Assembly: GCA_051439425.1 (NCBI GenBank)
Contig: JBFRWD010000153.1
Coordinates: 1 to 64,000 of the forward strand
Length of the DNA: 64,000 nt
DNA from: Synechococcus sp.
Lineage (GTDB): Bacteria > Cyanobacteriota > Cyanobacteriia > Thermostichales > PCC-7336
Reading direction: 5' to 3'
Shown here one piece after another: positions 24,187 through 24,903 of this stretch. The notes beneath the pieces were generated by a model, which was not told the origin of the DNA, ran no database searches, and was given only the letters and a program-made list of their open reading frames with translations. The translations under genes and the position numbers were made by a program. Numbering within the stretch: position 1 is the stretch's first letter; the number at the start of each line of letters is the position of its first letter.

Positions 24187-24903
24187 ATGAGGAGTGTCAG
24201 GATACACCTTGCAAACAAGATCGACAGAAAAGTGTTGCCTTGTATGGGTGGCGGCAATGCTGCGGGGATAAGTGTTCCACAGGATCTTATGAAGGCTCTT
24301 GGAGTTGAGGAGGGTGCTAGGGTCCGGGTCATTGATTTCCAGAAAAGAGTCTCGATTCCAGTCAGGGCTTACCACACGGACTTCCAGCAAGTCGGAGTTT
24401 CAAGGCCCGTGAGGGAAGCCCTAGGGTGGGCGCTTAATCCTCAAAGTACCCCTGGAATTTCGCCATATCGCAACCTCCAAATTCGCATCACTCCTTTCGA
24501 GTACGACTTTGCCATTTCCTATGCAAGCGAGAGGCGCGACTATGCCCGGGGCCTGGCAGAACAACTAACCTCGGCAGGGTTTCAGGTTTTCTTCGATCAA
24601 GATAAGAGGCATGTTCTCCACGGCAGATTCCTGCCGGAGGTCTTTGACAGGATCTATGGAGGTAATTCTGATCGATACGCGGTACTTGTATCCCGCGAGT
24701 ATTTGGAAAAGCGCTGGACCATGCTGGAGTTCCAGACAATCAAATCCTGGTTCATATCCCAGAACCGGGATCTGCTCTTCCCAATACAGCTGGATGAAGC
24801 CCAGTTGCCGGAGATGGAAGACTTAGCATACTTGGATGGCCGCTCCCTAAGTATTGCAGAGGTAGCGGAAGTGATGGTGCAGGGCATCTTCGAGGAAGAG
24901 TAG
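24187..24903 (+). CDS. TIR-domain protein, first integron cassette
   Basis: TIR box YDFAISYASE.R.YA, VFFD, VLVSREYLEKRWTMLEF (putative catalytic Glu), LFPIQLD; about 100-aa N-terminal beta-rich domain. Confidence 0.88.
   Translation: MRSVRIHLANKIDRKVLPCMGGGNAAGISVPQDLMKALGVEEGARVRVIDFQKRVSIPVRAYHTDFQQVGVSRPVREALGWALNPQSTPGISPYRNLQIRITPFEYDFAISYASERRDYARGLAEQLTSAGFQVFFDQDKRHVLHGRFLPEVFDRIYGGNSDRYAVLVSREYLEKRWTMLEFQTIKSWFISQNRDLLFPIQLDEAQLPEMEDLAYLDGRSLSIAEVAEVMVQGIFEEE

Follow-up and report, generated by a model that had tools for sequence, protein, structure and literature searches.

A predicted double-psi beta-barrel fused to a TIR domain and encoded in a single-gene cassette at a decayed integron of Synechococcus sp.

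TIR domains are a common enzymatic core of bacterial, plant and animal immunity, and the ways in which they are switched on are varied and poorly known. Those that hydrolyse nicotinamide adenine dinucleotide (NAD+), the TIR NADases, are active only once TIR domains have been brought together, as in SARM1, AbTir, SPARTA and the plant TIRs. The gene described here lies in a 64,000-nucleotide stretch of a Synechococcus sp. genome (GenBank assembly GCA_051439425.1, contig JBFRWD010000153.1, positions 1 to 64,000 of the forward strand), referred to below as the window. It encodes a protein in which an N-terminal domain, predicted to be a double-psi beta-barrel (DPBB), is fused to a C-terminal TIR domain; with one attC-like site it forms a cassette at the attI-like site of an integron that has lost its integrase, and it is considered here as a candidate anti-phage gene. 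Coordinates are window positions unless another contig is named; C-numbers denote contigs of the same genome, P-numbers proteins of the family and L011 a 5.4-kb metagenome contig.

The best matches to the TIR domain are AbTir, BtTir, BtpA (TcpB) and PdTIR (7uwg, 7uxu, 8g83, 7uxr, 4lzp and 3h16; Foldseek E 1.1e-6 to 2.1e-5). The W-x-x-x-E stretch of these proteins aligns with that of the protein studied here, but identity is only 22–27%. Their N-terminal regions are coiled coils or other structures and are not known to be beta-barrels, and several have been discussed as host-directed effectors; to our knowledge, none has been reported as an integron cassette. Thoeris ThsB, SPARTA TIR-APAZ, retron-TIR, TIR-SAVED and Cat1 likewise use a TIR domain as the enzymatic module, and SPARTA and Cat1 are among the structural or sequence matches of the TIR part. 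These systems comprise several genes or domains and have a defined partner (ThsA, pAgo, a reverse transcriptase or SAVED/CARF), whereas the present one consists of a single 238-residue protein with no conserved neighbour. It is not a Thoeris system, because neither the cassette nor any of the 32 open reading frames (ORFs) of the window that were scanned encodes a ThsA (SIR2/Macro plus SLOG).

DPBBs are regarded as very ancient folds, found in AAA+ adaptor domains, RNA polymerase cores and cofactor-binding domains. The N-terminal barrel of CDC48/p97/VAT and other DPBBs (7dg9, 7dbo, 1cz5 and 5epp; FwdD 5t5i; msDPBB_sym2 7dww) share the fold predicted here, a strand–strand–helix–strand unit occurring twice, at Z 8.0–10.0. 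Helix 1 leads into a G-x-x-G-D/x-V turn (LGVEEGARVRV) that has the pattern of these barrels. Unlike CDC48 and VAT, the protein has neither an AAA+ ATPase nor the second (beta-clam) subdomain, and it differs from the CDC48-type DPBBs in a long conserved loop, P-G-x-A-P-x-R-N (residues 89–96), between helix 2 and the last strand. No description of a double-psi barrel fused to a TIR domain was found in the literature.

Two reports (10.1101/2024.07.02.601719 and 10.1101/2024.07.02.601686) describe integrons as banks of compact phage-defence systems, namely the BRiCs of mobile integrons and the cassettes of sedentary chromosomal integrons of Vibrio; TIR and Thoeris are absent from their main texts. 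Like such cassettes, the one described here is a small, self-contained, promoterless ORF with its own attC-like site, situated at attI. The defence cassettes of those two reports are from Proteobacteria, whereas this one is in a cyanobacterium and its integrase has been lost. The text of Cury et al. (2016; PMC4889954) includes Cyanobacteria among the bacteria that encode integrons and discusses arrays without an integrase.

The barrel-TIR protein and its family

The ORF is preceded by AGGAG at 7–11 nt 5' of the ATG, and the same start methionine is found in all five aligned members of the family. In the C-terminal part, Pfam TIR_2 (PF13676) matches residues 108–219 at 55.9 bits, the cut-off being 28, with E 7.7e-15. 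The preliminary description of this DNA, made from its letters alone, had noted that the TIR domain keeps the glutamate of WTMLE; these are residues 177–181, and E181 is indeed invariant in five of five aligned members. Among solved structures, the best sequence match of the family profile is the NAD+ hydrolase AbTir (E 1.1e-12), in which the glutamate of WTNYE, the catalytic residue, aligns with E181. A full-length AlphaFold2 model built from the five-sequence alignment has a pLDDT (predicted local distance difference test) of 71.9 and a pTM (predicted template modelling score) of 0.71. The top Foldseek matches of its TIR part are all TIR domains (7uxu_A, E 1.1e-6, TMt 0.74), the fold neighbours being AbTir, BtpA/TcpB, PdTIR, BtTir and SPARTA TIRs. 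This suggests that the domain is of the AbTir/BtpA-like, NAD-cleaving kind.

Among the PADLOC models, the TIR part matches the candidate PDC-S66 (E 3.5e-12) and, weakly, ThsB1 (E 4.1e-5); there are also weak matches to ThcB4 (E 1.3e-3) and to the NCBIfam retron-TIR model (E 5e-7, far below its cut-off). In the 55 nearest TIR relatives scanned, the partner domains are SLOG/STALD, SAP, EAD11, kinase, TPR, HEAT, NB-ARC and beta-propeller domains. The 4.8-Mb genome itself, recognizable as cyanobacterial by its photosystem II genes for CP47 and CP43, has 17 TIR_2 matches, in open frames of 65 to 927 residues.

The N-terminal domain was modelled alone with a pLDDT of 76.3. Strands E4–7 and E27–31, helix H32–38 and strand E45–50 form the first half, and strands E55–64 and E70–71, helix H73–79 and strand E98–103 the second. 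As a check, the preliminary description had suggested structure prediction and Foldseek, and these recover a double-psi barrel, the best match in the Protein Data Bank (PDB) being the DPBB of an archaeal VCP-like ATPase (7dg9, E 7.4e-5), followed by formylmethanofuran dehydrogenase subunit D (FwdD), designed symmetric DPBBs and many p97 N-domains. VIA-align, which is independent of Foldseek, was run against 48,161 chains and gives 7dww_A at Z 10.0, with a root-mean-square deviation of 2.2 over 81 of its 86 residues. There are 18 chains at Z>=8, and those recognized are all double-psi barrels: CDC48/VAT/Pex1 N-domains, RNA polymerase barrels, aspartate decarboxylase and kiwellin. In both comparisons nearly all fold matches are DPBBs. 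The N-terminal domain is thus predicted from the models to be a single-chain DPBB.

No sequence match to a DPBB family is significant; those below threshold are CDC48_N (E 0.11, in two of five members), UFD1_N1 (0.05), Molydop_binding (0.079) and FwdD (0.033). A designed DPBB is also among these sub-threshold matches, independently of the AlphaFold2 model. Searches of the barrel profile against PDB sequences gave nothing significant, the best match, Shigella ORF169b (E 0.016), being taken as chance, and in the ESM Atlas the best score for residues 1–104 is 0.84, below a meaningful level.

Two related half-repeats in this domain had been thought reminiscent of a double-psi or an AbrB-type barrel. 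Of these two related folds it is the double-psi barrel that is predicted, and not the swapped hairpin of AbrB. MazE/AbrB (PF04014) matches residues 22–49 only, in one of five members, at 15.6–16 bits against a cut-off of 24.7 (E 0.012–0.016); an antitoxin-type model, doc_partner, matches weakly at the same residues. The modelled barrel is a single chain, and AbrB/MazE entries are absent among the fold matches listed. The half-repeats themselves (ISVPQDLMKALG, residues 28–39, and VGVSRPVREALG, residues 69–80) correspond in the AlphaFold models to equivalent strand–helix units of the two barrel halves (E27–31/H32–38 and E70–71/H73–78). Comparison of the halves with hhalign pairs exactly residues 26–41 with 67–82, but with P 0.14 the repeat is not significant as sequence.

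Proteins of this family are extremely rare. Among 1.84 billion cluster representatives, searched exhaustively with HMMER, 4336 match at E<=0.001. Of the 150 matches listed, nearly all cover the TIR part alone, and the only others among them to match the protein end to end are P0002–P0005 (241–244 residues, 34–41% identity). A profile of the N-terminal domain, searched among longer proteins, yields six proteins: the query, P0002–P0005 and P0234. All six have 238–244 residues and a TIR_2 domain, so that the barrel is seen only fused to TIR (six of six). The family therefore amounts to six singleton proteins among about 15 billion; five of them are singleton clusters, and the listing for P0234 gives one member sequence. 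A word-based search with the single protein, in which there were 634 candidates, retrieved the protein itself and no other. The N-domain profile was also run against 400 other genomes sampled from the phylum and gave no real homologue there, only three marginal matches (E 0.006–0.008).

Residues invariant in the five aligned members are S111, D137 and E181 in the TIR domain and N10, D13, S29, G39, G43, F66, G70, R76, G90 and R95 in the N-terminal domain. The barrel is basic in all six members (pI 7.6–10.9), with a net charge of only +1 in two of them, and the TIR domain is acidic (pI 4.6–5.7). Such a pairing would suit the binding of nucleic acid as well as an intramolecular lock, and proves neither.

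Cassette and integron platform

The locus is an integron stub, composed of an integrase gene remnant (delta-intI), an attI-like site, one cassette and a GNAT acetyltransferase gene of uncertain status (Table 1). It is not a complete integron, because intI is missing and only one attC is present.

Table 1. Features of the window and of related integron loci elsewhere in the genome
Feature	Location	Strand	Remarks
Barrel-TIR ORF	24187..24903	+	238 aa; ATG start, TAG stop
N-terminal domain, residues 1-104, predicted DPBB, CDC48-N/VAT-N-like	24187..24498	+	AlphaFold2 model and fold matches
C-terminal TIR domain, residues 105-238	24499..24903 (including stop codon)	+	PF13676; glutamate E181 in WTMLE
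attC-like site, 71 nt	24903..24973	+	R'' GCCTAAC, L'' GCCAC, variable hairpin, L' GTGGC, R' GTTAGGA
Gene cassette, 806 nt, one ORF and its attC	24162..24967	+	From between G and TT of the attI core (24161-24167) to between G and TT of the attC R' box (24967-24973)
Integron platform: intI-attI intergenic region and attI-like site	23881..24167	+	Five-copy repeat in the genome
delta-intI remnant	23875..23931	-	Start codon and about 12 IntI-like codons (LLERMQDSLRLQ), then similarity ends
GNAT acetyltransferase gene	24987..25598	+	PF00583, E 3.1e-15; starts 14 nt after attC
421-aa protein	21147-22412	-	HetL-like pentapeptide repeats in first ~260 residues; C-terminal ~160 residues without family match
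121-aa ORF, secreted-looking by eye	26747-27112	-	Within low-GC stretch
IS-type transposase (rve)	31761-33107		
Other attI platform copies	C172:10994-11280, C77:29076-29266, C175:16717-16908, C33:59052-59156		blastn
Decayed integron of C172 (L018)	4479-11543	array -	intI pseudogene faces array with at least four attC-like hairpins
C172 hairpins with CTAAC...GTTAG ends, between ORFs	8603-8517, 7645-7552, 6805-6720, 4550-4479		
TIR_2 gene of C172 array	7959-8495	-	Possibly continued in 7641-7892 after TGA
First ORF at C33 attI, RelA/SpoT-domain protein, 347 aa	L022 5988-7031	-	PF04607, E 4.5e-19; PADLOC candidate PDC-S33, E 2.8e-21
Phd/YefM-YoeB toxin-antitoxin pair	L020 (C175) 12698-13316	-	A few ORFs into array

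The remnant of intI was recognized by comparison with the intI pseudogene of C172 (11251–11523), which translates as LLD, a stop codon and then VRDSLRVKHYSYRAEQTYVHWIRRFILFH; this pseudogene matches TIGR02249 (E 2.6e-24) over model positions 1–91 of 315 and has four in-frame stops. In the assembly, which is 96% complete, no intact intI was found: no TIGR02249 match exceeds the cut-off, and the C172 pseudogene is the best. DNA homology between the window and C172 begins at 23881, and blastn aligns the window platform with C172:11280–10994 at 82% over 288 nt, with C77 at 79%, with C175 at 71% and with C33 at 73%. The attI-like site (about 24085–24167) holds TTAGGCGGA twice, at 24093 and 24133, and ends in the core GTTAGGC. 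Conservation among the five copies extends as far as ACTAATCAATAGTTAG and breaks off right after GTTAG, as is expected of an attI crossover point with different first cassettes. A different forward ORF does lie behind each copy, within about 25–52 nt in the four copies other than that of C172. Contig depth in the platform bin is 60, against 12–19 in the adjoining bins (run X1).

That the five copies are strain variants of one locus was rejected in view of their identity of only 71–82% and their different flanks on both sides. A match to the attI core in a metagenome-assembled genome (MAG) of Verrucomicrobiae (L023) has only a 21-mer in common with it and is probably due to chance. A cyanobacterial MAG (L024) carries a longer attI-like stretch, which adjoins a desaturase gene and not intI.

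The attC-like site begins with the last base of the TAG stop codon, and its 71 nt lie within the range of attC hairpins (57–141 nt). It is an imperfect hairpin in which the terminal boxes pair, GCCAC and GTGGC form a second stem further in, the unpaired spacers are unequal and the tip is variable. The fold has an energy of -21.7 kcal/mol (z -4.4), and none of 200 shuffled sequences was as stable. In the whole window there is one occurrence of the pattern CCTAAC-N40-70-GTTAGG, where 0.04 are expected. A genome-wide filter on arms and stability passes three of 1884 candidate arm pairs, namely 24903–24973, one 3' of an ORF in the C172 array, and C113:15318–15449. The ends CTAAC...GTTAG are common to the window site and the four C172 hairpins, and a MAFFT alignment of the five is not structure-consistent in the variable centre. 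These attC calls were judged by hand, with pattern and fold scans made for this study.

The cassette stands in first position, as the preliminary description had it, between the attI copy and the attC-like hairpin, and is stand-alone, holding one ORF and no partner gene; its 5' leader ahead of the ATG is 25 nt. The first cassette of an integron is normally the best expressed. Between 23700 and 31500 there is no further strong TAAC...GTTA hairpin, so that the window locus has a single attC-like site, where an array, or a cluster of attC sites lacking an integron integrase (CALIN), has at least two. The GNAT gene occupies the place of a second cassette, and no attC was found behind it, even in degenerate form (hairpin z +0.2 and +1.1); it is not counted in the system, nor is it kept beside the homologue in L011. 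In marine-sediment contigs from a second study, stretches of the gene and of the junction from TIR through attC to GNAT are covered, and 0 differences are seen. No cassette-free joined or excised form occurs in the contigs of three DNA runs, which says nothing on mobility or expression.

The other platforms carry different genes. The RelA/SpoT-domain protein which is the first ORF at C33 is, by its sequence matches, a possible alarmone-synthetase-type defence or toxin gene. The first ORF at C77 encodes a lectin-like protein, and those at C175 and C172 encode proteins without family matches. Further cassettes at these platforms encode an alpha/beta hydrolase, a pentapeptide protein, the Phd-YoeB pair and NAD(P)-binding proteins, two of which are in the C172 array. 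Toxin-antitoxin pairs are typical of chromosomal integrons.

Besides the window, the family can be read in its genomic setting in L011. There (3415–4886) a gamma-PGA-hydrolase-like gene lies 26 nt behind P0234, with an overlapping RimK-type ATP-grasp gene next to it. The homologue and these genes may be an operon of their own or unrelated neighbours. The two loci have no neighbours in common, the window having the acyltransferase and GNAT genes and L011 the gamma-PGA hydrolase and RimK genes.

Farther from the cassette, the stretch 25600–28300 (about 2.7 kb) contains short ORFs only, with a GC content down to 0.36–0.40, while that of its surroundings is about 0.50. Parts of a contractile injection system lie at 7871–17074, including a tube protein (14198–14707), a PAAR protein (14725–15222) and a VgrG-related protein (15263–17074); beside them is an ORF of 2078 residues without a Pfam match (7871–14107).

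Proposed function and alternatives

The preferred reading, to which we give roughly an even chance, is that the gene encodes a stand-alone, one-gene, sensor-fused TIR NADase which acts against phages by abortive infection. The barrel is read as a sensing or assembly module because TIR NADases need TIR association and because the nearest TIR relatives carry varied sensor or adaptor domains. It would bind a ligand derived from the infection, which could be a phage protein, a peptide or, the barrel being basic, a nucleic acid. The ligand-bound barrel would then bring TIR domains together into a composite active site, NAD+ would be cleaved, with depletion or a product of the cyclic ADP-ribose (cADPR) type as the result, and the infected cell would stop growing. 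The gene is considered an accessory gene of the mobile type because the 400 genomes of the phylum hold no real homologue of the barrel and because of the integron context. First or early cassettes at the sister platforms, including the PDC-S33-matching RelA/SpoT protein, the TIR_2 protein and Phd-YoeB, were counted in favour of this view.

Several points weigh against an antiviral NADase. Both the NADase activity and the phage protection are predicted, from sequence and model. The preliminary description had suggested PADLOC among its checks; no curated defence model is reached, the PADLOC matches are confined to the TIR part and PDC-S66 is itself only a candidate. The AlphaFold2 models, made from only five sequences, are of middling confidence, and DPBBs serve many different tasks. 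Cyanobacterial TIR proteins need not all be antiviral, and this genome has 17 TIR_2 matches. The neighbours of the cassette, which encode an acyltransferase, the GNAT protein, a pentapeptide protein and a dehydrogenase-like protein, form no recognizable defence island. A consensus scan found no sigma-70-type promoter upstream of the ORF, and the integron, with its intI stub, is dead at this locus. Finally, there is no attC-like hairpin at P0234 in L011, so that the readable homologue is not in a cassette.

Among the alternatives, the one that survives best is unlikely, though far from negligible: the protein would consume NAD as a toxin or regulator without antiviral function, in cell death, stress control or the stabilization of the cassette or locus, or as a nucleic-acid-bound regulator. 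The basic barrel and acidic TIR domain of all six members would suit such a role, but the net charge of +1 in two of them would suit it less well. The weak antitoxin-type matches (MazE/AbrB and doc_partner) at residues 22–49 were counted for it; the former is below threshold, however (15.6 against 24.7 bits), and the predicted fold is a single-chain DPBB and not a swapped-hairpin dimer. Toxin-antitoxin genes are usual in integron arrays, as with Phd-YoeB in the C175 array, and TIR genes are many in this genome, but the cassette contains no antitoxin-like second ORF.

A very unlikely alternative is that the TIR domain, in the manner of Thoeris ThsB, generates a signal in trans, a cADPR isomer or something similar, for an effector encoded elsewhere, the cassette being an extra sensor. 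The nearest solved relatives, AbTir, BtTir and BtpA, are producers of cADPR isomers, and the weak match to ThsB1 and the number of TIR_2 matches in the genome also fit. One report on Thoeris (PMC13069673) contains the statement that such systems can use several TIR sensors, which was counted on the same side. An effector with a SIR2, SLOG or Macro domain is, however, found neither in the cassette nor in the 32 window ORFs scanned with Pfam (positions 44 to 50681); STALD/SLOG was not found in the genome either, in a search that had no positive control and says little. In addition, a cassette is independently mobile, and this favours self-sufficient genes.

Least likely of all is that the cassette is a relic, left behind in a dead integron, which would now be neither expressed nor under selection and would have no current function. 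In favour of this, about 12 codons are all that remains of intI, no intact copy was found in the assembly, the scan for a consensus promoter found none and the adjoining 25.6–28.3 kb is poor in long ORFs, with GC falling to 0.36. Against it, the 238-codon frame is intact and has a good ribosome-binding site, and E181 and all the other residues invariant in the family are retained. The contigs of the second study show 0 differences over the 3' end of the gene, the attC and the beginning of the GNAT gene, and the intI-attI intergenic region is conserved across the five copies.

The proposal of a sensor-fused antiviral NADase can be carried further. The DPBB, as a minimal CDC48-N-like barrel, might be a new kind of pathogen sensor that recognizes a phage component directly and switches on the fused TIR NADase, the protein then being among the smallest self-contained immune proteins with both sensor and effector, and the five or more integrase-free attI-promoter platforms might be fixed expression docks for defence-type cassettes. 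This extension is doubtful, and distinctly less probable than the proposal on which it builds.

Significance

What is new at this locus is a TIR effector with a new front end; the type of vehicle is known, and its host and state are unusual. The genome has no working integrase but five attI platforms, whose first cassettes all differ. Should the protein prove inactive or not antiviral, what remains is a rare TIR fusion, correctly annotated, within a decayed integron.

In the barrel-TIR protein a double-psi barrel of 104 residues is directly coupled to a TIR domain, and at 238 residues the whole is small enough for structural and biochemical work. If the antiviral proposal is true, the role of an immune sensor would be new for DPBBs. 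The banking of defence cassettes would thereby be extended from Vibrio and clinical mobile integrons to a marine cyanobacterium.

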